Shown in pieces: positions 1 through 17,341 of a DNA stretch of 25,175 bases (positions are counted from its first letter, which is position 1; the number at the start of each line of letters is the position of its first letter). The notes under the pieces are model-generated. The model was not told the origin of the DNA, searched no databases, and was given only the letters and a program-made list of their open reading frames with translations. Location of the stretch: the NCBI GenBank assembly GCA_010093745.1, contig MU005999.1, forward strand, positions 117,809 to 142,983. The letters run 5' to 3'. The position numbers and the translations under genes are program-made. The DNA comes from Piedraia hortae CBS 480.64. Taxonomy: Eukaryota.

Positions 1-1003
1 ATGTATGTATGCCCATTGCCTTGGTTCCAAGGAGGTGTCGCAAGACGCGTTTGGCTGCATCGATAGAATATGGCCGTTGTGGACCGCAGCCTCATCTTGC
101 TTATCCAAGCGAGCCATGAGTGCTCTGTGTGCTTGGAGTTCTCGAGCCAAAAACCGCCAGCTTCTTCCTGATATTTCTATCAGCTCGGGATGACACCATA
201 TGATGCACTCTGCAAAAAAAGTGAAAAACATGATGTTGGCAACAACATGGATCGTTGGAACCGTCCATCAGCCGGGTGTAGAGTGACACTAGTTCAGCAT
301 GGTGTCATCGTCGTCTAGCTCGCTCATTCGGGGGAGAGTGACCCCTCCAGTCATTACTGGTGCTGGACGCACCGAGAGGGAACTTGCCCATAAAGTGCGT
401 TCCTAGCTTTGGCACTATTGTACATATCTCGCGTCAAAACGATTGGCAACGAGTTTCCCGAGTGAGGGTAGGTCATCTGATGACCTCATTCCATCTGCTG
501 TGAGATCAAATTTCGCGTAGTGGTGACTGGAGCATATTCCATTTTTCCAGGACGATCAATAACTTCCAGCCAATTAACATTTGGCGTCTGACGGATGTCC
601 AACGCCACTCTCTGCTGCCGTTCCCTGTACGGAATCATTGCAATTTGCAAGGAGATTTGAAGCTGGCGCAGTTTCTCCAGAACGCTTCCATCAGCCTTGT
701 GTAAAGTCCACCCCTTGTTTAGGATGACCCGATTTTTGTGGTTATATTCATCAACAACATCGACCTCCGTTGCTAGCCTGACTTCGGGCCAGGCCATTCT
801 CACCCATTTCTTTCACTGCCTTCGAGAATGTCAGTCGGTCATCAGGGCTACCCAACTCGACGCTCGTCATCGGTCCAGGTCGGGAGTGTAGACTGACTTG
901 CCGGACCGCTTGGCGGATAGGCTTCCGTGAGGTGGTCATATATCTCCTCAAACGTTTGAAGCATTAAGGCGATGGAGGGGACTGCACGAGAGCGGCTTTT
1001 ATA
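1..1003 (-). pseudogene. Possible decayed gene of unknown family
   Basis: TATAAAA at 1003-997, ATG at 939, and overlapping protein-like frames (951-751, 803-486) that would need frameshifts. No recognisable domain. Confidence 0.25.
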
Positions 1004-1891
1004 GATGCATTCCTGGCGTGACATTGGGTATATACCCCCTCATGGAGTTTCGCGATTGTGAAAGGTGATACTGCGTCGAACAAGAGGATAGTTAGTCCCA
1101 TTTGCTCACTGCCTTCTTCGACTTATCGCCCACATTTCTCAGTTTGTCGTCGTACATTGTGCCTTTGATAACCAGGTCCAGCGCGGGGACAGTCGCTTGA
1201 TCTCAGGAGACTCAAGTCTTCATACAACGGCCCGTGGCCTTTGCGTATCTCTTTGTGGCAGCCACTCATAATTTCAAGCTCACCGCGAATGGGATGCTGC
1301 TTCCAGATAGGGCGTACTGTGGACGTTGTGGATACGTCGAAGGAAATGTGCGCATCTCCTAACCATCTGAGGTAGGTCAGTACGATTAACGGCACTGTGG
1401 AACCCATAATGCACCATAACGGGCACACTGGATGGCCTACAGGCGTCCGGCTGCGTGTATGTGATGTCGCCTTCGATGAGGAATAATTCCAATGGGTGTG
1501 CTTGTGGTTCTTCCGCATTCTTCGAGGCGGCGCAAGGGTTGAACCCGCACAAGGCAAAAGAGCCATGCTGATCTTCTTCCGGCGTGGTGGTATCAAGTTC
1601 TTCGGAAAGGGCGACACTTTTGGCTGTGCCCAGCTCTTTCAAGAGAAATCTGGGCCGGTAGATAGTCTGAAAACCACATTTCACGACCCAACACTGCATT
1701 TGACAGGCGCATGCAAGCGGGCAAACGCCTTGTACGATTTTTGGGACCAGTCCAAGCCAAACTTCGTACAAAGGACACTCCTTCCGATAGCTGCTCTGTG
1801 CTGCGCTGCAACGTGCAGAAGCGGAGGATGCAACATGGCCAAATCAAAGATTCAGAAACATACCTGCCGAATGGAACGCCAAACGCGCAAC

Positions 1892-1918
1892 GACGAACGA
1901 GACGAACGAGACGAACGA
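1892..1918. repeat. (GACGAACGA)x3 minisatellite
   Basis: Three exact 9-nt units read directly from the sequence. Confidence 0.9.
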
Positions 1919-2387
1919 GTTTGGTTGGTGCGACGTTGTGTTGTGTCGCGAGGTTTGGTGAGGTTTTGGTGGGGGTTACCCCCAGAAATGGCCCTTTGGG
2001 ACTTTGTATCGTGAAGCTGACCGTCCCAGTGCTTCCCTTCAAAATCTCAGCCAAAAAAACATCACCATAGATCTCTCGAAGTTTTTGCACAGATGCTGAT
2101 CATGGGAAGTGCACATGGAATCCCGGCGCACCCTACGCCACCACAGAGCGTGGAGACATCCACAGCACGACGCGGCCGAGGACTGGCATCTGCCTGTAAA
2201 GGAACTTAACAAGGCCCTTTCCTCATGTGGTCTGGCGGCGATGACCGTATCGTGAATTGCATCGGTTCTCCCTATGGAAACATTCACGGCAGATTCAAGA
2301 AAGAGCTACAAATGTAGCGGCACGGACCGACTGTATCGCTCAGTAAAGGAATCGGGACCGTTGGGAATTGAATAAGTTCAGTCTCAT

Positions 2388-5300
2388 TCAGAAGGGAACT
2401 TTGCCCGTGAGATACAGAACAGTAAAACCAGTCTCTCTGTTGCGGAAAACCATTGTTCGCCTGCACGAGAACCAATCATATCCTCGCAGCTGGCCAGGGG
2501 GTTTGAACATCTTCCGACCATCGACAGTGATCCAGTCTTTCGTGTTGTCCAAGGCCCAGATTTGTCGGCCTTGGAACAGCGAAATGGACTCTGTCGAGGC
2601 GGAAGAGTCCGCCTGCGTTTGGGGCTGATCGTCTTCGTTGGCTGCTAACCTGTCCACGACAGGCAGGAACGTTGACGACACAAAGCGACCATCGATAAGT
2701 ATCGAACCATTCCGAGGGCCCCGATCGAGTGTGCGCACAATGCACGCCTTTTCAATGTCCCATTCAGATATGCAATCCTTGGAGTCATGAGTGTAGAGCA
2801 TCCGACCGTCTGCTGAGAAACATGCCCCATACATTTCTTTTTCAGAGCTCAGTACCTGCGGGTTTTGTGACTTCGGTCCCCAGATCCTTATTGTGTCATC
2901 GCCTGATGCCGATGCAAAGTTCTGCCCATCTGGAGAAATCGCTATATCCCAGATCCGTTCCGTATGACCGGGGAATTCTTCTCGCAAAAGTCCACGTTCC
3001 AGATCAATAGCCCGTATCTGATCGTCGCGCAAACCGCAAAGGAGTGTTTTGTTGTCTGCGGATAACGCAAGAGCAGTAATATATCTCGGTCTGTCTTTTA
3101 ACTCTCTCAGTTCATCTGCATCCGTGTCCCAAATCAAAACCGCCTTGTCCGAGGATTGGTATAGGGAGGCAACAACCACGAAACGACTGTCCGATGAGAT
3201 CAGGATCCGGGGTAATCAGGTTTCGGAAGCCTGTGATCTGTTAACCGCCGTTCGCATATTCGCGTTTCAATGTTCCAAAGGCTGAGCTGGTTTCCCTGAG
3301 TCAATGAGGCGAGTGATCGTCCATCGGTTGACAGTGCGACTTCAGTGTCGCCAGCCCGATGCTGCGGGCTCTTCAAGAGTAGATGCAGGTCCAGCTGTGT
3401 AATTTGTCCACTTTCATACCCCGCCCAGATTGTCTTCCCGTCGGGCGATGATGTCATGGCTGTGACGCCGCTTCGCAATCGCAGCTTCATCGGCTTTTGT
3501 TGCGTTTGAAAGTCGTAGAGAAAAAGACTAGACCCGTCAAAAAACAAAATATTCTGGCTGTCTGGCGTAACCATGAGAGAATAGACACGAGAATTTCGCT
3601 TGATCTGGTCCACTTGGTGGGTGGTGCAGTGAAACACCGATATCGTGCCGTTTTCCAAGGGATACACAACTTTCGTGCTGTTTTCCAAGCGATACGCAAC
3701 TCTCGTGCCAGCACAAAAGACAACGAACTTGCGGTTTGGCGAAATGGCGATGCGCTCGATATCAGCACCAACTTGGTATACCATCTTATGCGCAGCTTGT
3801 GGGCTCCATTTCCAGATGTCTGTGGATCCCGACACCAGCGTCTCACTATCCGACGAGAAGTGCAGGCACCGCACTCGAGACTTATGACCCTTGAGCACCT
3901 GTCCGGCGTCCTCATCGGCGTCCCAGATGTAAATCTCGCCGGTGTCCAAGCCCCAAGCGGCATATCGGCCGTTCGGAGAGACGGAAACGCTTGCTGCAAC
4001 GCCTGGCAGTTTGATATTAATTGGCCTGGCGTCGTCTTCCAAGTTCCACCTCCAATAACCTCCGGTCAACTCGGCAATGACCACAATGTCTTTTTCAGGG
4101 AACGCTGAAGCGGCGTCGCGAAGATAACCTACTGACGACGTTTGGACCACACTTATTACAACTTCCGTACGTTTTTCTTCGGTGCCGCTTTCAACATCCC
4201 ATAGTCGCACTGTGTTGTCCTCGGCAACGGTGACAAGCCGTCTCCCGTCGATTGAAGGCGTTATCGACAGTATCCTTCCAGTATGCCCCCTCAGGGTTTG
4301 CAACTCAAAGCCCCAATCAGTCGCGACTGGCGGCCAAACTTGCAAAAACTCTTCCATCTCACTTCTGAAGGTATTTCGCACAACACTGTTGCTCGGCGCA
4401 AAAGCCAGTGCTGAAAGATATGTCTGAAGCGGTGTATCGCTGATCAGCTTTCGGTTTGCTGGTACCCATCTTAGCGCATCGGCGACAAAGGCGTGTAGCT
4501 TGGGCGAAGATTTCGACTGCGCACGGTTAGGCATACTTTCGGCAGACTGAAACGGAAGCAATACATACGTCGATGGCCTTTTGCAGCTGCTTTAGGCATA
4601 CCACCATTCCCCCAAGCTTGTCCAGCCACGCCATTGCCTCTGTCCAACAAAGAAGAAATGCGCGTAGGAAAAGATCTACTTGTCCACCATCTTTGATTGC
4701 CTCGTTGCTATCGATCGCATGGCTGACCCAGTAGCGGCAGGCGTACTGTACGGACTCTGGGATGCGCTTTTCGACATGCTCTGCGGACACATCTTTGCGT
4801 TTCGTTACTAGATCTTTCTGCTTGCAGACGTCGCGGACCAGCTTTTTCTCGAGCAAGTTTCGACATTTGCTCATGAGAACGCCATGTACTTTCCCTTGAT
4901 CAATCCAGAATTCAGGATGATCCTTGAGACTAGAATTCATGAGAAAGTCTCGGAAGGATTCATGATAAATCCGTACCGTGGCCCGAGAGCCTTTTTTCAC
5001 CTCGTTTCCACTGGGAAAGTCGATTACCGAACTCAACGGTTTAAGAGCATTGGGAACAACCATGTTCTTTCCTCCACCGAGCAGGTCCGTCAGCGCCGGA
5101 ATGGTGAGTGGAGCAAGCAGAACGGCAATTGGCTTGATGATTCGATTAAATTGGTCGAGCCACTTTGGATCAGCCTTAGCAGCCTGCTCAAGAATGCCCG
5201 AATAGATGCAGTTCAACCCTTCCGAGCCAGCGAAGCTGAGCCGGTTGACCCATTCCTGAAGTTGCTCTCGTGGATCATTGCTTACTTCTCGGAATATCGT

Positions 5301-7418
5301 GGAGGCCGCGATAAATAGTGGCTTTGATATCTTCACAAGTTTGTCGACAACGCTTTCCCCTGGCCAGTCATCCTCGAGCTCATCATAATCGGTTCTGCTC
5401 TGCTCGCGGAGCTTCCCCAGCTCATCGTAACAGAACAACCTCAGGTCATGCTCGATAGTGCTCGATTGCCAGTCTTCAAGCCTCTCGTGCTGGAGATCCT
5501 TGCGCTCCACCTTGGCGAGCGCATTGCCAATCTTGTTGTCGGACCGGCTCGTCACGAAAACTCTTAGGTTCATGGAGCTTTGTGCACGAAGTCTCAGCCA
5601 AAGAGTCATGGCATAGCCTATCGCTCCCCAGTCCTCGCACTCGTCGAGAGCATCGATGACAATCGCCCTGACATCGGTTGCAGACCCCGTCTTATACCCT
5701 GAAAGCGGTCCCTCAATGAGCATCTCGAACTGAGTTGTCAGCGCCCTTTCATTCACCGGAGGGGATCCTTTGGAGGCGGCAGCAATCTTGTGGCTGATGC
5801 TGGGTACAAAGTCTGCCATATGACGGGCAATGGTGGGAAACAGACTGCCAGCGCGGCCCAACTCACCACGGCCGCGCTTGAAGAAGAAGCTTCCCACCAG
5901 GTACCCTTGCCTCGCAAGTTCATCGGCAACGGTTCGCGCAATTGTCGATTTGCCTGTTCCTGCCTTTCCAGATAGCCAGAAGATCCTTTGGTCATCGTTG
6001 GTGGTGGCCCAGTCCAGGATCTTCTCCCTGATCTGCACCCGGGTATTTTCTAGACATAGCTGCAACTCGCCATTTTCGTCGGCATTACCATTGTTTATCG
6101 AATCGTAAGCTGCCCCGGCAGCCGCCTGCAGAGCGCTAAGATCCAGCGCTTGTTGAACGCCTTGGACTCCTTGATTGATCTCCTGCTGGGCCTTCTCCAG
6201 CGTGTTCAGCTTTTGTTTGACCCAGTTCCCTTGCTCTTGTGAGATTATGCGATCGACAGCATTTGCATGGTATTCAACCGTCTTCAGCATCCCGTCGTGT
6301 TTAGTCTTGAACTCTTTTATGACACCACCAGTCAGAGATTGCAAAGCTTGTTCCAGCGGTTTTCTGTCGCATATGTGTTGGGATTGCGCCAAGAATTCCA
6401 GAATGCGACTGTAGAGTTTGACGATGCTGTGGTACAGATCGCGGTAAAGTTTGAAAATACTTTCATCATTAATCGTGGGCGTTCCACTGTAGATGGAAAA
6501 GTACGCGGAAAGTAAAGTGTTGGTATCTAGCACCGTTTCGATTCCCTCCAAAATTGATTCGTCCTGCTCGTGAGCCATCTGAGCCACCTAAAGAAATGGT
6601 GTCAACCAGGATCGCAGGTGGTGAGGTCTACTCCTTACCATCAAGACAGACCGGATACCAGCCCACGGAAGGCTTAGCACCTCCGCTTGGGCATTAGTCG
6701 CCACATCAAACACCGGCGCAAAGTTCATAATTTGAGTAGAAATCTTTTTCATCTTGGCCATCCATTGGTGGTTACGTTTTCTCTGATTCAGGCCTCTCAA
6801 GGCCTGGACCTTGGCGGCGTCAATGTCAAGATCACTATCCAAATCTACGTGCTCCGCAACAAGCTTAAGCTCGTCCGACGGAATATTAGCAAGAGCATCA
6901 ATTCTCAACTGCCGCTGACCTTGAAAAGGATTTCTTCGAGCTGGCACCTCAGATGAAGCCTGTACAAGCGTACTGTTTGGCTGTGTTGGCTGCAAGGGAT
7001 GCAAGGACCGTGGGCTAGATGCCAACACTTCCGCAGGTATACTGTTTGGCTGCAATGGTTGCGATGGCTGTGGAGCGGGAGAGGAAATCTCTACAGGGAC
7101 ATTGTTTGACTGCAGAGGCTGCGGAACAGAAGCTGAAGCCTCTGCAAGTGCATTGTTTGGCTGCGAAGGCTGCGATGGCTGTGAAGCGGGAGGGGACGCA
7201 TCTACAGGCACATTGCTTGACTGCGAGGGCTGTGAGGGCTGTGGATCGGAACGTGACACCTCTTCCGGCGTATTGTTTGGCCGCAAAGGTTGGAAAAGCT
7301 GTGAGGCGGGACCTGGAGCCTCTGGCGTGGCATCTTTTGATTCTTGTGATTTGTGAGGTCGTAATTTCGAGACCAGTGAATAAATATACGCTTTGAAGGA
7401 CTCCCAGCATCCGGACAT
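2388..7418 (-). CDS. NACHT-WD40 NLR (HET-E/NWD-like STAND protein); exons 7418-6639, 6587-4569, 4516-2388; ~1640 aa if the 1-nt frameshift near 3210 is repaired, otherwise truncated at 3200
   Basis: Walker A IFWLSGKAGTGKSTIART, GSFFFKRG, Walker B IVIDALDEC, VFVTSR, PLFIAAST, YHESFRDFL, YACRYWVSH, TPLQTYLSALAFAPSNSVVR and LQTLRGH...LWD followed by WD40 blades. LPWAGI...LM resembles the NWD NACHT N-terminal domain. Introns 6638-6588 (GTAAGG..TTGAC..TAG, 51 nt) and 4568-4517 (GTATGT..CTAAC..CAG, 52 nt) join the three ORFs in frame. Start at 7418 (MSGCW) is preferred over 7568 but not proven. Confidence 0.9.
3643..3709. repeat. 30-nt in-frame tandem duplication (~2.2 copies) inside a WD40 blade
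   Basis: tcgtgccgttttccaagggatacacaactt / tcgtgctgttttccaagcgatacgcaactc / tcgtgcc; encodes RVAYRLENST / KVVYPLENGT. Confidence 0.85.
6948..7307 (-). repeat. About 6 degenerate coding tandem repeats (~60 nt / 17-23 aa, PQPSQPxQPNNxPxExS) in NLR exon 1
   Basis: ASQLFQPLRPNNTPEEVSRS / DPQPSQPSQSSNVPVDASPP / ASQPSQPSQPNNALAEASAS / VPQPLQSNNVPVEISSP / APQPSQPLQPNSIPAEVLAS / SPRSLHPLQPTQPNSTLVQASSE; recurring TGTTTGGCTG..GGCTG on the + strand. Confidence 0.85.
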
Positions 7419-7976
7419 GCTGGGCACGTTTAAATGGCAATGAGAGAGGGCAGTTTGAGAAGGTTTGGCATGAAGAAGCCGTTGCAAGGCTTTGCCGTGT
7501 TCAAGGCTGAGCTTTGATGAAGTGGAATAAGAGTGGGGTGCATGCATGAGCCTACTGTTAGCATGCATGAGCGGATTTCACTAATGAGGCATATCATATG
7601 CCTCGTTTTATGCGTGCGCCGTAGGCATGCGCAGGCAAGCAGACAGGGTTACCCCGGCTAGATCACCTGGGAAGAAATTGGAGAGATCCTGCAGAATGAC
7701 CTTCTTGTGTAACATTGGCCACAACGGTTAATCGCAACATCTTGTTTCTTTTAGGTGAGGACGAGGCTTTCACACTCCATAGAGCTGATATGGTTTGAAA
7801 GTCAAAAGGGGAGCCGTGATAAGTGCATTCTAGATACATAGCCGGAAATATCCCAAGGGGTAAGGTGACAAGCAACCTCGCCTCTCGAAAGTCTTGGTAG
7901 CAAAGTAGGTAAAACAACATCATCTTTCGCGTCACCCCCCATTTCTATTCTCACTACTTGAATTGAATACATCACG

Positions 7977-8022
7977 TGTGGGGCTGGTCCCCCCTGACAT
8001 ACCCGCTGTGGGGCTGGTCCCC
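7977..8022. repeat. Two copies of the 16-bp TGTGGGGCTGGTCCCC at 30-nt period, upstream of the NLR
   Basis: Exact copies at 7977-7992 and 8007-8022; each is quasi-palindromic (GGGG..CCCC) and contains GTGGGG, which fits the CreA consensus SYGGRG. Confidence 0.8.
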
Positions 8023-8764
8023 GCATATCGTGTTTTCATGCGTTTTTCCTTTTGTTATGCACGTTGCGCATTATCCCTTCCGGGACTGGTCTTTAGCTGA
8101 GTACTTAGCCGAGGAATCATCCCCCGAGGGGAGGCGTATGCATCTCTCTTTTCCGTTCGCATCATCGTCCATCTTCCCTCTATTGTAGTATCAGCTAATT
8201 CTCTGCTCAGCCTCAGCTCGCTGCCATAGCTGTCGTATCATGGCTACCACAGAACCTCCATACCAAAGTGAAACGGTGCACATATGAGTATGGATTACTG
8301 GAGCGCTCGATAAACGGTTTCAACTTGTGGAACAGTGTTTAGATGATGAGTTACGGTGTTGTGACAATTTAGGTGCGCGCTAAGTCTAGCGATAAACCCA
8401 TGTCATGATACCACCTTTGCAGCTTAAATGGCTAAGGTATGGCGTTGTCTCTTAGCCATTCCTTGCCCTCCATTGGTGCACCGCGAAGTCCGATTCGGCT
8501 GGGTTGTCGCGAATCGTAGCGAGAGGCGAGACATACACTGACATAACTCAGTGTTTCTGCCGATCATGGTGGTGGTGATAGTGACGGCGGAGGTGGCAAT
8601 GGCAACGGTAAGATAACGGAGAGTCATGATGATAGTGTTTATGGTAGCCCCCAGAACCTCGTCGGCGCTTCAGTGTTGTGACTAAGCCGACGCTGGTCAT
8701 GTTGGCATGCCTAGACTCGCCAAGACCAATCACACGCTTATCCAATTTGAACTGGCTCTAATCT

Positions 8765-8797
8765 GAAGAGGTTGGGAAGAGGTTGGAAAGAGGTTGG
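8765..8797. repeat. (RAAGAGGTTGG)x3 11-nt tandem repeat
   Basis: gaagaggttgg gaagaggttgg aaagaggttgg. Confidence 0.9.
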
Positions 8798-8836
8798 GCT
8801 CCTCAACGGAAGGCTGGGAGGCATAGAAGTGTAATG

Positions 8837-10010
8837 TATATAAAGCCGGTCCTTGAGAGACTTGGAACTTATCTTTTTCACCCTCCACAGTCGTCCAATC
8901 TATCTATTCAAAACATTCAGCTACGCGACATGGACTTAACTCAATAAGCGGGCTACACCACCGTCCTCACCGAGCGCGTCCTAAAACTGCTCACTGACGC
9001 CAGAGGACCCTCTACCGAACGCGTCTCAACCCAAGAAACGGCGCGAAATTTCCCCGTCGCGTGTTTACTTGCTATCTCATCTGGGCTGTATAAGTCCTAA
9101 ATCTCCTTTGTAGTCTGCACCGTGTCAATAGCGCAGACGTATTCAGTAGGATAAAATCTTGCACCCTGTGCATCACAATCTTCCAATCATGACGTGTGCA
9201 ATAGCGAAGCGATCTGAGCTCGAACAATCGATTGAATCGTTTTGACGTGCCGTTTGATGTGTGTGAAAATGGTGGGGTGATGTCGGATATCACCCCCTTT
9301 TCCCTGGTGAGGAGCCATAGCTTATTGTTTGTAAGGAAGCATGTAACAACGAGCTTCATCCGTAAAACCACCAGCCCCGGACGGCAAGATGGATTTAGCC
9401 CTGCGATGTCAAAGGAGTTTGCCTGATGGTTTAGATGCTGATTAAGCGACTCTGGAGTTTCTGGGGACACATCGTGCGCACCCCGTCGGGAACATGGACG
9501 ACCATCAGTAGTGCCGCTTTTTTTCTGGTGGACTTCAAGCGCCGATATATAGTTCAAGCACACTTTTATAAAGCTCAGCTTCTTCGACTGCACAATTTCT
9601 GCCGGATCTGCCTTACCTTGGTGGGTGCCCTACGTCTGCTGAGGTAAACATTGTTCGAGAAACCCATTTTGCCGCTCCTTCACTGAGAAAATTGACAATT
9701 TCCCGATCCGTGTGGCCGATCTACCCGTTCATTTGGCATTGCCACTCGTCCGAATCAGTCCTTGGCAATCCCACAACTTCAGCGAGATCCCACCGCTGTG
9801 AAACGCAAAACTATAAGAAGACCTCCCTCCATCCCTCTCATATTCTTTTCCTCTCAACTCCAAAGTGCGCGCTTCCCTTTGAAGAGACAGATAGTATGTA
9901 CGAGTGAGAACGATGAATGGAGAGTTAGAGATCTGTTTATGAGTGAATACAAAAATTATCTTCGAGGGAACATCAGAGAATATATTCTGGGCTGGAAGGC
10001 CCGTGCGTAG
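8837..10010 (+). pseudogene. Possible decayed gene of unknown family
   Basis: TATATAAA at 8837-8844, ATG at 8930 closed by TAA at codon 6, broken reading frames, and a protein-like end (ENDEWRVRDLFMSEYKNYLRGNIREYILGWKARA*). No recognisable domain. Confidence 0.25.
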
Positions 10011-10021
10011 CCTCGTATAAA

Positions 10022-10146
10022 GAGTCATCAATTGTATGACCGTAAGCAAGTGGTCATACATGCAGTAAGACTGTCAGCATGCAGTCTTACTCCATGACTC
10101 ACCTCAAACAGTAGCAGGGCGCATTCACCATGTCGCATGCGACATG
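10022..10146. other. Nested inverted-repeat cluster (three-way-junction-like) plus an 18-bp perfect palindrome
   Basis: GAGTCAT (10022-28) pairs with ATGACTC (10094-100) and encloses TGTATGACC/GGTCATACA (10033-60) and AGTAAGACTG/CAGTCTTACT (10064-91); CATGTCGCATGCGACATG at 10129-10146. Confidence 0.75.
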
Positions 10147-10411
10147 ACCTTGAGGGAAACCTCTGTGAGGACAAAACCTAGGGTGCAGCTACTGGTGTAA
10201 GAGGTGTCGCGCAGTGGCATCGTACACTGATAGCAACGAGACTTCATGCCAACACCCTATCCTTCGATCCGGCCCGTTCCCCACCAACCTCAAGATGGCT
10301 GGGCCGCAGAATTCGAATCCACTCACCTCTACAACCAAACCACCGAAACGCCTTCTGATGCAATAACGCTGACCGAACACCATCATCCCCCCCCCTCCCT
10401 CATAGACCACA

Positions 10412-11894
10412 ATGCCAGCCCTCACCCTCACAAACCTCAACATCGTCTGCGCTGTTCTAGGCGGCTTCATCACCATCTTCGGCCTCATCTCCTATCTACT
10501 CAAAGAACACTTCTACCTCTCTGAGGCCCTAACCTCCACCCTCACGGACATAATCTTCAGCCCCCACGCCACAAACTGGATCCGACCGTCACAACTCGTG
10601 GGTCGCGATTCGGATCCCGAAACCCCCGAACAAGTAACCCTGTACTTCAGCCGGCTAGTCCTAGGCGTGCAGCTCGTCCTCGCTGGCGTCCAGCCACCGA
10701 GTAAATACCTCTAAAAAGAATGGCGGAATCTGAGTTTACTGCTAGGTCCTGGCATGTGCGTGATGTGGATGATTATGAGTCTGTTGGTCTGGGGTCTGAC
10801 GCCGCATTGTGAGGTTTTGCAGGCGTTGGCGGTGGGAGCGTGCATGACGCTGACAGATCCGGTGTTGTCGAATAGTACTGTTAAGGGGAAGTTTGCGGAT
10901 AAGAATATCATTGTGAGGTTGCAGAAGGTGGTTATTGCTGATTCGGGGGCGAATGATGGGTTGGGGTATCCGTTTTTGTTTCTCGCGTTGTATTTGATTA
11001 GGGGGAGGGGGATGGGGGTTTGGTTTTATGAGACCTGGGCGTATGAAATCCTCATGTCGGTTGCGTATGGGGCGGTGGTGGGTTGGTTGGCGAAGGAACT
11101 CCTGCATTGGGCGGAGGAGAGGAAGATTGTGGATAGAGTGAGTTTTCTTGTGTTTGCGATTACGCTTGCGGTGAGTGGTTTCCATCCTACAGGGGGAAGT
11201 GGGGTGTTGGGATTGCTGACGTCTTCAGTTGTTTATAACAGGGACGTGCGGTCTGCTTTCTACGGATGCTGTGCTGGCATGCTTCATCGCGGGAAATGTT
11301 TCTACCTGGGATGATTGGTTCATGGTGGAGACGGAAGATGATAGTTTTCAGCCGACTATTGATATGATCCTCAACGTCGCTGTGTTCATGTGGATTGGAG
11401 CGACTTGTCCGTGGCACAAATTCGCACACAACGAGGTCATCGGTATTGGCAGGTTGACTGGATTGGGGATTTGTGTCCTCTTGCTGAGACGACTACCTTT
11501 TATTCTGTTGCTGAGGAGGTGGATAGATCAGATTGGGAGCTGGAAGGAGGCGTGTTATATGGGATTTTTCGGGCCGGCCGGTATTTCTGCCGTGTTCTAT
11601 CTCTTCATCGCGAGGGAGTTCTTGAGGGAGGAAAAACCTCATAAACACTCAGAGGACACATTGGCTAAAATGTTGGAAGTCGAGGTTTGGTTTCTGATCA
11701 TTTGTTCCATCTTCGTTCATAGACTGGCTGTGCCACTGACGAAGTTGGGCGTTGCTCTGCCGAGGAACTTGAGCAGGGCTGTGGGGGAGAATTTATCCAC
11801 CTCGGTGGACGAGCGTCGGGGAGTGGACGGCCTGAGAGGAGAGGAGTTAAGAAACGCAGTTTCTGCACCTGTTCCTGCACGGGTATCTAGCTGA
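10412..11894 (+). pseudogene. Na+/H+ antiporter (CPA1, Nha1/Sod2-like) with an in-frame premature TAA at 10712-10714; exons 10412-11170, 11229-11894
   Basis: SYLLKEHFYLSEAL, YFSRLVLGVQLVLAGVQ, SKYL*KEW..LLLGPGM, TDPVLSN..VKGKFA, SGANDGLGYPFLF, TWDDWF, LLLRRLP, GFFGP.GISAVFY. Intron 11171-11228 (GTGAGT..GCTGAC..CAG). The ORFs either side of the TAA are in the same frame. Confidence 0.88.
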
Positions 11895-11930
11895 CATGAT
11901 ATATACAAGATAGACATGAAGTTATAATTT

Positions 11931-12113
11931 TCACGATTTCCTCCCCATCCTCCCCTCTGCCGCCCTCGCCAACGTCTCCCTACTCAACGACTCATTCTCC
12001 CCTCCAAGAGTACGCCCCGTCCACCCTCCCTGATCGACATGCTCGTGGCCCTCATCATTGGGATTAAAAAACTCATCTCCCCCAATAGATCTGCCTCCTC
12101 TTGTCCAATCATA
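11931..12113 (-). pseudogene. 3' fragment of a WLM-domain (Wss1/Wss2-like) metalloprotease gene
   Basis: DWTRGGRSIGGDEFFNP..DQGGWTGRTLGG..LSRETLARAAEGRM matches my recollection of the C-terminal tail of filamentous-fungal WLM proteins and contains the VIM-type motif Rx5AAx2R. The upstream HELAH zinc motif is absent. Confidence 0.6.
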
Positions 12114-12992
12114 CGATAGGCTCGCCGCTGAATAGGGGAGCGTCCGCTCGGGAGGACAGGGGAAAGGACTCAAAGCTGGAGCGAGGACGGACACAATATA
12201 GGAAGGAATTTTACATGCACTTGGATGATCATGGGCAAAATCTTGCTCTCGACATAGATTGCGGATCATGTGTTCATAGACGCTTTGGGGAACCATATAG
12301 CATATTGATTTAATTGGGATATATCGACTATCACTGAACATTTCCCAACGCAGACTATTTATACGGCGATGAACTCCATCTCGACTAATCGCGACCGTCC
12401 GCACTGCCAGCTCCTTCAAGGCCGCTTTAACGGGAAGATCTAACTCTGACGAAACTTGAAATATTCAAAAGGAGAACGCAATGCAAAATCGCGTAAGGGA
12501 AATTTTGACGGAGGTCAAAGCCAGGGATGTGATACCAGCTCCATTTCCGCTCTTTGGCCTCAGCCTTACCTTATGAGCACCCCCGTAACACCATCGAGAC
12601 GCGTGTGGGACCAGGTGTGATCGAATCACTCCAGCTCACTATGTATCTGTGACCCCTCGACGACGCATTTGACACCAAAGATGACTCGGCAGCTTATGTC
12701 TAGCATGAGTGGCGTTAAGACTCAGGTACATCGCTATGTTCTTAATCATGGTAGACCAAATCACCCACTACTCGGGGGCTGGAAGACTGACGGCCATCAA
12801 GGAATGGGACGATGGATGAAAATTTGTCTGTAAGCCACTACCATTTAAATTTTAAGTCTAATCAAGTGGACTTGCATGGCCTCCTAACTAAAATAGCTGA
12901 GAGTATCTGCAAAACTGCCCAACGAGAGCCCCTTGCGCTGACTATCCCGAAAAAGGTGTTGACTTGGCCAACAGGCAAAGTCGGATTTAGAG

Positions 12993-13316
12993 CAGGGCAG
13001 TGAAAGTTGAAAAATTCGTTGTTTCTGATCATCTGGCTTCTGTTTTTGGCAATGAATTTGTATTGGGAAGTATACCGGATTTTCTCGAGAGATGAGAAGC
13101 ATGGTAGCCTGATTCAAAGCCAACGAGCAATTCCTTATGCTTTATCCCCTCAGTGTTGTAAGGCCTTGCAATGGTGTATCCATCCCGCCAACTCTCGTTT
13201 GCATTCAAAAACATTAGCGCCTCAAACGTCCGATCTGACATCGATTTGCGATAGTCGGTTTTTACCCTCTTCGCCTTGCTGAAAAGCCTCACACATATGT
13301 TCGAGGTAGGTAGAGT
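12993..13316 (-). mobile_element. hAT DNA transposon relic (C-terminal dimerization domain; candidate terminus near 12993)
   Basis: LPTSNICVRLFSKAKRVKTDYRKSMSDRTFEALMFLNANESW fits the hAT PxTSxxxERxFS...R.....E.L.FL signature, with the catalytic Glu replaced by Val (GTG). CAGGGCAGTG at 12993 is only a candidate TIR. Confidence 0.8.
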
Positions 13317-13699
13317 CCGACTAGATTGACGGAGCCCAGGCTTTTCGTCTTTTCCTTTCCGCCCACTGTAGCATATCAGTGGACCGGTGGAGCTGGTCGC
13401 CGTCGACCTCGCGCAATTGGAGTCGTTTGTTACCCAGCTGCAGTCCTATCTGCTAACCTTAATGCAACGTATTACCATGCTGCTGCTGTCCCCTATTGTA
13501 TGAACCTCGCGGCCATATTAGACGGCATGTTCGCCATTAGACAGTTCCAAGATAACTCCCAGCCAGGCACCAAACGCCCTTCGCCAATATTCAGGGTGTT
13601 CATTTGTCGGAGAAATTGACGTTCCAATCACCACTTTTCATCGCGCCACATCTCCGAGCAGGCCTCCTGATCATCACCTTCTGCGGTGGGTTCGGGCGA

Positions 13700-16050
13700 C
13701 AGCCCCTCAGGATATTGTACCAGTGTCGTTCCGGGCCTACTGGCCTCCATGCGCAAAGAATCGATAAGACTTATTTTGGTAGAATGGTAGCCCCGCCGGT
13801 GTTGCGCGTCGCTGTACTTCTGTTGTAGGTATTATCGTTATGTATTTCCTTAGTTTCGACAGGCCTGGCAAGGCCTGTTGATGAGGTAACCTGTGATTTG
13901 TTTTCACTGCATCAAGAGTTAATTTAATCAGATCTAGTGCGGACTGCATCCTCTTATCGCTGATAGGGGCTTTTGTGGAGCTGTAGTAGACAAATAACAG
14001 GGTGTCCACCGCAGAATTAAAGGGGAACTAGTCATGCCCCGGCGGAGCGAGATGAGGAAGCCTAAGGGGGCTGATTCGGGTCGGCTTCCCCGGTGAATCG
14101 TCCTCTTCTTCGTATTCGGGGAAGTCATTGTCCTCATGTTCATCACCTGGGCAACCATGGCAGCCGTGAAGACTTCACCAGCGTCGTTGTCGGTATGTAG
14201 TCCATTATTCACAGGATCTACCTCGAGATTGTCGTCATTGCTATCATAGGCGGTTTCTTCAACATTGCTGTTGCGGTTTGCCTCTGCATAAGATGCGTCG
14301 GCCTCAAGAGAGTCGGCCGCCCGGCAACATGTTCTGCCAGGCTATACTCTTACTTGCAATACGACGGCTCAGAGCAGTCGTCGCTCCAACACGGCACCTA
14401 CAAGAAGACGATATGAGCTTGGGGCCAAGCTTTATCCTGAAGTTCTGAGGACCAGACTCTGGAAGCTTTTTCGGAGACTCGCCGGATAAGGCCACTGCCA
14501 GGGAAGAGCAGGGGCGTCGTCCGTGGCACCTACCTGGCCTGCCGTTCTAGGCATTGAACGAGCGAGAGAACAATGGCGAGGTACTGTGCGAGCAATTGCG
14601 ATTCTGTCTCATGCAGTGTATGCACATACTGGTATTGCTTGCCTCGGAAAAGAGATGTGTGCATCCTTCTTGTCACCAGCACCAACCTCCCGCCAAGGAC
14701 GAACACATTGCGGAACACATTGCGGGGAAGCCTTTGTGTGTTCGACATGCGCATCCTGAGGAGATACTTGATCCCGGGCGGCAAGCCGCTCCGCAGGTAG
14801 ATCGAAAATGAAAGGACCTTTCGCAGCTCCCTGGCGAGCTGCAGGTACCGCGCGACTTACAGCCGCCTCCACCAATTATTCGCCATGCAATCCATGCAGA
14901 CCAGGGCGAATAGTTCCTCATCAACGGGGAGGTGGTTATGCGCATCTCGCAGGAAATTGTAACTGGCTTCCTCCTCCAACAAAAGATCAGCCATGTCCTG
15001 CAAGTTCACACGGCGCTCAAGTCCATACAAGCGTTGTTCCAGCAGCTCCTGGACGTCCGATCGCGCCCGTCAACCAAGCTGTCAAAGCTCGGCAGTTGTG
15101 ATTGACCCACTTTGCCAAGTGATATCATTGTCAGACTGCACAAAGCTAAAGCGGCCTATATTGTGGCACTGGCCAAAAGAATACTCCATCAGCGTTAGCA
15201 GCTCACCGACAACTGACTGGGAAGACGATTTCAGAATGTCGTGGTGGATTGGACTAAATGCATCCGGGTTGCCATCCTACGGTCTCGACTAGCCAAGTCT
15301 GGCATGAGGCTGTGACAAAAAGGTTGATTCCAGGATAACCAACTGACATGTGTATAGCAGGCTGCCATGTACTGGCGCATAGTAGACGGACCTCTGCATT
15401 TGACACCATCTGGGCAAATGGAGAACGCCGCGAGGACAAAACACAACAAGGAGATGTTGAACCTGCAATCGTCCCCTCCCTCCTTCGCAACAAATGCTGA
15501 AAAGCTGGCTATACTGTCCTCTGTTCCTACTGTGTGGGGGGATCGGAACTGCTTGCGGTGCTTGTAGCCTAACATCTTCTTTGAGCTGCTTGTCACACTC
15601 GTCTTCCAACTCAGCTTCCGAGTCGAGATCTTCAGCCTCAGCTGATTCGTCGACCCTTTCAGCCTGAGCCATCATTGCAAACGGGACATCTGTAACCGTT
15701 CTCTAGGCGGTACTGTCGTAGAGTTGAAGGGTTCGTTGCGTCATTGTGCGTTATTGGTGATATCCAGTTGATGAGTTTAAGTAGAGCTGCCTTGGCTGTC
15801 TGCGCGAAAGTATAATCGTGCTCCTCCTCTAATGCTTCAGTGGCTGAACTGTTGCACAGCCTTAGCGCGCTCAGGCAGCTTCTGCCTCCTGCCAACGACG
15901 ACGTTGTATGACGTACGCGCGTGGTGCAGATGGGCGAGAACAGCGCCAGCAACCTGATGCTTAACCTATAAGTCCAGGTGCCGGGATTGGCTCCATGCAT
16001 TCATATGGTTTGCCGCTTTCAGGACATTACTCAGTGGCGTCCTTGGAAGC
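13700..16050 (-). pseudogene. Decayed gene resembling the non-helicase core of telomere-linked RecQ helicase (TLH)/DUF3505-associated proteins; best supported part 14300-15520, outer limits approximate
   Basis: One frame runs 15675-14530 with stops at 15289, 15277, 15082, 15070, 14857 and 14530: SLLYTCQLVILE..VVGELLTLMEY..YNFLRDAHNHL..VARYLQLARELRKVLSFSIYLRSGLPPG..LLRMRMSNT..RNVFVLGGRLVLVTR..SQLLAQYLAIV. This matches the recalled family pattern HxxxGQPARGxE..N....RN.F...G....VT.Y.K. No helicase motifs were found. Confidence 0.65.
14701..14724. repeat. 12-nt exact tandem duplication (RNVF RNVF)
   Basis: gaacacattgcg gaacacattgcg. Confidence 0.9.
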
Positions 16051-16932
16051 ATTGCAATGGCTTCGCGGAGGAAGCCCAATCTGAAAGCTTTTCGGCTGAC
16101 ACGACGCTTCTTGGGAGCTGGGGAAACGCTCATGAGCCTGGGAAACTGTCGAGATTTGGGGGCCATTGAATATTTAGAGAGAGATATTAGATGTAAGAAT
16201 TGGAATATCCAGTCGAGGTTTCCTGATCGACTCTGTGGCTGGGCACCTCGTAGTGCGAGAAATCATTTCGAGCGAATTGAGGGTTATGTCGAGAATTTGA
16301 TTTGAATTGGTAGTAAAGGAGCAGGGGTAGGGATGGAGGGTGAGAGAGCTGCCGCCATCGTCTCAGAGGCACTTGCAAAATTGGTGGGGGCGGAGTCACC
16401 ACAGGCAAGATTTGCATTTAAGACTCCGCAGGTAAAGAGAAGAGCATTATTAAGCTGGATTGAAAGTCTGGAGGGTTGGCATCTTCGTAGCGCGCTGTCG
16501 GTTTGTTTCCATAAGCCCCCATACCAATTCTGGGTAGGCAGATAAAGTTACGGCTGTGGCTTAGTGGTACGAATCTCTCCAGTGCAGGCCCTTGTTTCAG
16601 AGGATGATGGCCAGGACGAAGTCAGATCTAAGATTGTACATAATTTTCCCGTAACCGAGCCAGGTATATGTTCATCTTCTTTTGAACGGACCTCCATGTA
16701 AGACAGAATGCTAGGGTCCGATTGATTGCGACCTTGCTCAATCGCTTTTTGCAAAGTGCAATGAAAAGACCCTAGGATCGCTCAAGAAATTGGCATCCTT
16801 GGCATGTCGTCACTCGTACACAGTGTAAGCCCCCGGCGTTACGGCAGTAAAGCGGGTTGCGCGTGTGCGCAAAATTTGTGCAAGCCAAAAATCCCCGACG
16901 CGGAGAAAATTCCACGCGGGGCAAGATCTTCC

Positions 16933-17033: not shown

Positions 17034-17341
17034 ATGGAGAACGAAAAAGGCGAACTCGTCGATCTGTATGTCGCGAAGCATCCTTACTCGCACGCCTACT
17101 GATCCGGGACAGGTACGTTCCGCGGAAATGCAGCGCCACGAACCGGATCATCAAGGCCAAGGACCATGCGTCTGTGCAGCTGTCGGTGGGCAAGGTGGAT
17201 GAGAATGGAAAGTACACGGGCGAAAACCAGGTGTATGCGCTGAGCGGGTTCGTGCGCGCCATGGGCGAATCGGATGACTCGGTGAACCGCCTCGCGCAAA
17301 AGGATGGGTTCCTTAAGAAAGTTTGGAGCGCTACTCGTTAG
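17034..17341 (+). CDS. RPS21: 40S ribosomal protein S21 (eS21), 86 aa; exons 17034-17065, 17113-17341 (absent from the ORF track)
   Basis: [86 protein letters not shown]; intron 17066-17112 (GTATGT..CTGAT..CAG). Confidence 0.97.

Follow-up and report, generated by a model that had tools for sequence, protein, structure and literature searches.

A decayed DUF3505/TLH-type tyrosine-recombinase-like relic in a probable patchwork accessory island of the fungus Piedraia hortae

The final 25,175 bases of contig MU005999.1 (here C43) of Piedraia hortae CBS 480.64, referred to below as the window, had been proposed by a first-pass annotation to contain a cargo-carrying mobile element, laid out like a Starship and led by a recombinase-like gene of the DUF3505 or TLH (telomere-linked helicase) type. 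Our analysis points to another origin. The block is probably a patchwork accessory island produced by several independent events, in which a dead recombinase-like relic lies next to a younger local duplication carrying a NOD-like receptor (NLR) gene and an antiporter pseudogene; it is highly improbable that the block represents the cargo of a DUF3505/TLH element. For the intact relatives of the relic, a tyrosine-recombinase catalytic-domain fold is well supported by structural models.

The gene at the centre of the earlier proposal is the following feature:

14494-15648, minus strand: DUF3505/TLH-domain tyrosine-recombinase-like relic, truncated at both ends, recognised by a profile match and interrupted by stops

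The corresponding minus-strand frame (14302-15702) comprises 467 codons with 8 stops. When translated with X at the stops, the relic matched 71 proteins at E≤0.001 among 1.84 billion representatives, those with a species name coming from filamentous ascomycetes, and a profile of 141 relatives aligned its positions 21-350 with 15471-14494 of the window (E 2e-46). This bears out the earlier identification of a TLH/DUF3505-type relic reading inward. Its extent, given before as 13.7-16.1 kb, is limited by the profiles to approximately 14494-15648, with an N-terminal profile pushing the upstream limit only to 15648. Nor is it the first gene after the core block, as had been assumed, because a DUF2293 pseudogene fragment intervenes at 15831-16188. 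In the alignment to the family profile, Gly replaces the first Arg of this copy and the Lys is missing. The C-terminal half with the R/H/Y residues reached scores of 14.3 and 11.5 in a frameshift-aware search, which were matched by 12 of 60 and 35 of 60 shuffles, respectively, and a degenerate R/H/Y half perceived by eye at 14.2-14.4 kb was rejected due to this shuffle-level score. The window copy is a dead internal relic that has lost both ends and its catalytic residues; the tyrosine-recombinase-like motifs ascribed to it hold for the family, by the fold and residues of its intact members, and not for this copy.

Several other domains were searched for at this locus. OrsD had seven matches in the genome, none of them at the relic (N-terminal profile, only E 0.19), DEAD and Helicase_C gave no match in the three minus frames of 12900-14401, and no zinc finger was detectable in the window copy. 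DUF3435 was not matched at E≤0.05 by the relic, by the protein P0002 or by any of the 45 relatives scanned out of 71, and had no match across the genome, though the control of that search likewise gave none. Further relics of the family were found on contigs C2, C39 (two) and C68, without the NLR-antiporter segment of the window in the stretches compared. One piece on C39 (C39:141262-141672, locus L091) corresponds to profile positions 287-430.

Pfam was run on 45 of the 71 relatives and identified OrsD, formerly DUF3505, in 26 and a DEAD helicase domain in three, with neither an integrase family nor DUF3435 among the results. The family profile spans positions 2-465 in all four helicase-fused proteins tested (E 6e-60 to 6e-110), and the relic region is therefore equated with the TLH domain region. 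In an alignment of 141 rows, counting those with a residue at the respective position, R268 is kept in 139 of 140, K302 in 139 of 139, R391 in 131 of 133, H431 in 123 of 126 and Y440 in 125 of 127 rows. Their order and spacing suggest that R268-K302-R391-H431-Y440 are the catalytic positions. At position 388, three places before R391, where a His is expected, 82 of 133 rows have Q, 31 have R and 11 have A. The captains of Starships are described with an RKHRY pentad (PMC10104507), and the DUF3505/TLH family differs from them by Q, R or A at the His of H-x-x-R.

The fold assignment was obtained with two AlphaFold models. The model of the intact relative P0003 (predicted local distance difference test, pLDDT, 85.9) was compared with 48,161 chains, and the top nine were recombinases, led by XerA (Z 11.3, root-mean-square deviation 3.4, 167 aligned). 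For the catalytic part of P0022 (pLDDT 83.6), XerA aligned with a Z of 11.8 and a root-mean-square deviation of 3.4 (172 aligned); the first 27 rows were recombinases, topoisomerase IB, Ndc10 and SroF, the last of which we take to be of the recombinase type, and the first unrelated row appeared at rank 28 with a Z of 5.7. XerA, XerH, XerD and Cre were first-ranked in the searches of both models. With Foldseek, neither model reached a match at E≤0.001; XerH and Cre ranked first, and the best values were E 0.0055 for XerH and E 0.028 for topoisomerase IB. A profile search of PDB sequences yielded low-complexity matches only; the searches that used sequence alone did not reveal the recombinase link. 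A connection between TLH/DUF3505 and recombinases was found in none of the papers searched, which cover the literature incompletely, and the eukaryotic recombinase families as listed in PMC13465315 (2026) do not include DUF3505/OrsD.

The arrangement of intact relatives was assessed in 49 family loci from a metagenome scan. A sharp left end is common to loci L049, L055 and L057; it lies approximately 1.65 kb upstream of the core and is marked by a module with two 17-bp palindromes (L049:8322-8440, L055:150-270, L057:4020-4130), outside which the flanks are unrelated; that of L055 is a broken helicase frame. In a second subfamily (e.g. L051:4590-4800), a related left-end module has three or four palindrome copies. 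The module was present at E<0.01 in 14 of the 23 loci with at least 1,750 upstream bases; ten of these 14 were used to build the models and two duplicate those, so that only L030 and L070 are independent. Approximately 4.8 kb are common to L049, L055 and L057, the similarity between intact relatives stops near the stop codon, and helicase genes lie downstream in L030, L041, L063 and L065. Of the shared boundaries with variable cargo that the first-pass annotation had suggested looking for in intact paralogues, defined left ends at unrelated sites were found in intact relatives; downstream, no genes are common to L049, L055, L057, L034 and L036. A 12-bp direct repeat at positions 4017 and 9954 of L057, 5.9 kb apart, brackets the recombinase gene, and is not present in L049 or L055, i.e. 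it occurs in one of the three loci with the same left end. Just past this repeat the sequence jumps into the interior of another family member, and the flanks join into no known empty site. A second module lies about 260 bp past the stop codon of L049, and L065:8612-18235 carries on one strand a helicase-less recombinase gene, a TLH helicase gene and then a telomere array. Short segments downstream of L049, L051 and L068 were considered as right ends and judged by eye to be retroelement tails.

The fold, residues and ends of the intact relatives make it most likely that these are recombinase elements able to move themselves. Their protein would bind the 17-bp palindromes of the left end, and would cut and rejoin DNA via the conserved Tyr. 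With their approximately 4.8 kb, L049, L055 and L057 resemble the short single-gene recombinase elements known as Crypton-type DNA transposons (PMC13465315), but the intact relatives differ from these by the OrsD zinc finger, a long helical insert and two to four 17-bp palindromes at the left end. We hypothesize, with less than even confidence, that DUF3505/TLH proteins act as recombinases for a so far unrecognised lineage of DNA elements in fungi, one that is independent of both Starship captains and Cryptons. Such elements would have a palindromic left end, unrelated insertion sites and RecQ helicase or HET-domain genes as possible passengers, and the window would harbour a dead copy. The palindromic left-end module is absent from the window (best E 1 and 0.59 with two models) and from the stretches of the own genome that were compared.

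The left part of the block is derived from a single region of contig C18 and includes the following features:

313-12112, no strand assigned: segmental duplicate of C18:208572-220634 (NLR, antiporter, WSS1 3' end), six collinear blastn blocks
2388-7577 (open reading frame bounds), minus strand: NACHT-WD40 NLR with Pfam NPHP3_N, NACHT and WD40 and a Q/P/S-rich repeat N-terminus
8674-8915, no strand assigned: putative solo long terminal repeat (LTR)-like insertion of 242 bp, TG...CA ends, 5-bp target duplication, not at C18
9879-10254, no strand assigned: putative solo-LTR-like dispersed repeat of 376 bp, 4-bp target duplication, not at C18
10412-11894, plus strand: Na+/H+ antiporter pseudogene, Pfam Na_H_Exchanger, one premature stop
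11931-12112, minus strand: 3' fragment of a WLM-domain (WSS1-like) gene, 94% DNA identity to C18:220422-220634

Identity to C18 amounts to 79-92% per block and up to 94.5% over the last 635 bp. No C18 match was found beyond 12112, and the duplicate stops 2.4 kb before the relic. As read at the junction, its right end falls inside the WLM-domain gene, presumably WSS1, of which the window retains the final 180 bases before it diverges. On C18, an intact antiporter parent (91% identical, no stop), located beside an NLR in the same arrangement, is followed by the whole WLM-domain gene (WLM E 1e-48) and then by core genes. The NACHT-WD40 NLR and the decaying antiporter with a neighbouring fragment, all noticed in the first-pass annotation, are hence genuine, the fragment being the WLM/WSS1 3' end. 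Within the antiporter/WSS1 part, 106 of 1,858 positions differ from C18, and the comparison of the window with C18 revealed no bias resembling repeat-induced point mutation (C>T plus G>A 40 versus T>C plus A>G 34). Since the two insertions are present here and not at C18, C18 represents the older state. The 376-bp repeat recurs on C40 (96%), C69 (94%), C12 (92%) and C43 (88%); no further copy of the 242-bp insertion was found in the own-genome stretches compared. The recombinase profile had no match in the 60 kb of C18 surrounding the source, which were searched as six 10-kb stretches.

Searching the genome with the NLR gave 67 matches, 27 of them near full length at ≥57% identity. The WD40 part of the window NLR is frameshifted near 3211, where 1 nt is deleted in comparison with C18. 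The flanks that this NLR has in common with other paralogues end staggered between 6734 and 8100, compared with 12112 for C18. Divergence from C18 is 15.6% in its NACHT part and 5.7-9.9% in the flanks, and other paralogues are as close to this NACHT part as C18 or closer; the NLR therefore appears to be a mosaic formed by exchange among paralogues. The Q/P/S-rich coding sequence at its N-terminus (6951-7341) consists of imperfect repeats of 51-111 nt, with a copy number different from that of the C18 paralogue. Fungal NACHT-WD40 NLR families expand by ectopic recombination, as exemplified by NWD/HNWD of Podospora. The window NLR resembles these by its membership in a dispersed multi-copy family, its mosaic similarity and the staggered common flanks, but differs in that its copy came with a core antiporter and part of WSS1, and in that its WD40 units do not form internal repeats of high identity (none among the largest repeat families listed).

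Three further pieces lie between the duplicate and the core block:

12880-14318, minus strand: internal relic of a terminal inverted repeat (TIR) DNA transposon, 73-78% DNA identity to the inside of an element on C42
13127-13416, minus strand: hAT dimerisation-domain scrap of about 290 bp, Dimer_Tnp_hAT E 0.003, below the cut-off
15831-16188, minus strand: DUF2293 pseudogene fragment, Pfam E 0.0014, between the relic and the core block

The C42 element (C42:36035-40063; L011/L012) is itself decayed, 4.0 kb long and bounded by 358-bp inverted repeats of 72% identity; inverted repeats of this type were not found in the window (best E 0.73). No Pfam family was detected in the frames scanned of either the C42 element or 12880-14318. 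We rejected the idea that 12880-14318 forms the tail of the recombinase gene, as it matched none of the relative proteins compared and the related C42 element is bounded by inverted repeats. The hAT scrap is an insertion in the transposon relic and is absent from the C42 copy. Of the hAT relic described in the first-pass annotation, a weak dimerisation match remains, only about 290 bp long and placed within this other transposon. DUF2293 has seven matches in the genome, two of them over the cut-off, and the window piece shares 83% DNA identity with C1.

The accessory island extends over approximately 22 kb (about C43:112,000-134,600) in an assembly of 16.9 Mb and 132 contigs, with core genes on either side. 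To the left of the window, these are genes for GH16, kinesin, Rad17, XLF and HMG-CoA reductase. To the right of 17 kb, an RPS21-like gene is followed by ABC transporter and alkaline phosphatase genes:

17034-17341, plus strand: RPS21-like gene (label presumed from its sequence), first core gene, oriented away from the island, start and stop located

Based on the homologies, the origin of the duplicate in C18, its break within WSS1, the two insertions and the loss of catalytic residues, the following order of events and mode of copying can be proposed. An old DUF3505/TLH-type tyrosine-recombinase element would have left a 1.15-kb internal relic after losing both ends, alongside which the TIR transposon relic, the hAT scrap and the DUF2293 fragment came to lie. 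The 12-kb piece of C18 would have been copied in later, with ectopic recombination or break repair involving the many NLR copies and their common flanks as the most likely route, and would have gained its two solo-LTR-like insertions thereafter. Six stops were counted in 326 aligned codons of the relic and one in approximately 490 codons of the antiporter copy (Fisher p=0.018), a test that rests on seven events and an estimated 490-codon length. Decay has gone further in the relic than in the copied antiporter, and a recombinase encoded by the relic is therefore unlikely to have brought that cargo. The repeat graveyard, mentioned as an alternative in the first-pass annotation, fits best.

Apart from the small basis of the stop-count test, several points weigh against a patchwork. 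The relic does read inward at the island edge. A piece like the transposon relic lies approximately 1.7 kb downstream of the recombinase relic L091 on C39 in the same orientation, and this pairing means that recombinase relic and transposon piece may have travelled together. Even with its own recombinase gene dead, a block could be moved in trans by another recombinase. Furthermore, the age and boundaries of the island were judged from one genome.

One alternative is that the block is what remains of a single large element, mobilised by a DUF3505/TLH recombinase, with the NLR-antiporter segment taken up as its cargo. Starships are described as having a DUF3435 captain at the 5' end, cargo, direct repeats and sometimes TIRs (PMC11162782, PMC10104507). 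The window resembles them in that an inward tyrosine-recombinase-type gene lies at the edge of an NLR-bearing accessory island, the family of its lead gene shows the fold and residues of a recombinase, and intact relatives have a fixed left end followed by variable downstream sequence, as in Starships. The island is bounded by core genes, and its WSS1 piece is truncated, which is often so in captured genes. However, the block lacks a terminal module and the 5' part of the recombinase gene, no DUF3435 match was found on the relic or on the 45 relatives scanned, no element ends were identified, the recombinase is not the first gene and is more decayed than the supposed cargo, and intact relatives with long flanks have no cargo in common. 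The supposed cargo is a local duplicate with a plain donor, and the 60 kb searched there contained no match to the recombinase profile, which argues against co-travel. Repeats at the candidate ends were not above chance either: three, one and four common 10-mers were observed compared with 3.2, 1.5 and 6.6 in shuffles, and no 12-mer was common, short target repeats not being detectable without known ends. A cargo element led by the relic, as originally proposed, is accordingly very unlikely.

Even less likely is a former subtelomere that became internal after a chromosome fusion and kept an NLR and the remnant of a telomere-linked helicase gene. TLH genes are described with a TLH domain, C2H2 motifs and a RecQ helicase, and the main text of the same paper treats the TLH domain without the words 'recombinase' and 'integrase' (10.1101/2024.02.27.582403). 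OrsD genes with and without helicase have been reported from subtelomeres, in passages that leave recombinases unmentioned (10.1101/721753). In agreement with such an origin, the relic is homologous to the region ahead of the helicase, all four helicase-fused proteins match the family profile at E≤6e-60, and a telomere (TTAGGG) array ends one of the 49 related loci. The window copy, however, lacks a helicase remnant and a detectable zinc finger, no telomere was recognised nearby, a helicase domain is fused in only three of the 45 nearest relatives, and relics of the family occur at internal sites on several contigs. The first-pass annotation had considered the subtelomere explanation equally good; the presence of core genes to either side of the island makes it weak. 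A (TTAGGG)3 array was found nowhere in the assembly, so that telomeres cannot be placed.

Least likely of all, the TIR transposon at 12880-14318 carried or triggered the C18 duplication through Pack-type capture or repair of an excision break: it does sit between the end of the duplicate (12112) and the recombinase relic and has a relative with long inverted repeats on C42, but such repeats are absent from the window, and its 73-78% identity to that relative makes it far older than the duplicate, which diverges by 5.7%.

Some observations concern the surroundings of the island. The contig end (24984-25175) is formed by an LTR-like repeat with TG...CA ends, followed by a purine-tract-like stretch on the opposite strand, and this repeat recurs beside the 3' ends of NLR paralogues on C18, C25, C40 and C64 and at several contig ends. 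A 360-bp repeat at C43:115569-115929 (L007:7761-8121) has at least 39 near-identical copies elsewhere (93-96%, among the 40 of 379 candidates that were scored). Just left of the window, two small paralogous frames stand in tandem (L007:4900-6300), and a relic of a long interspersed nuclear element perceived there by eye was not confirmed by tblastn using one reverse transcriptase. Pfam matches to NCH2, 7tm_1 and CoV_nucleocap (E 0.005-0.04) were taken as chance.

The locus itself is ordinary, combining a graveyard of relics with a local duplication, and an inward-facing recombinase relic beside an NLR does not make a Starship. The broader significance lies in the family. The TLH domain, for which an explanation has long been lacking, appears to be the domain of a tyrosine recombinase in which the key residues persist, and relatives without a helicase show defined ends in unrelated surroundings. 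The spread of telomere-linked helicase genes can thereby be tested directly, and the results hint at one more lineage of recombinase elements, which tools based on DUF3435 would miss.

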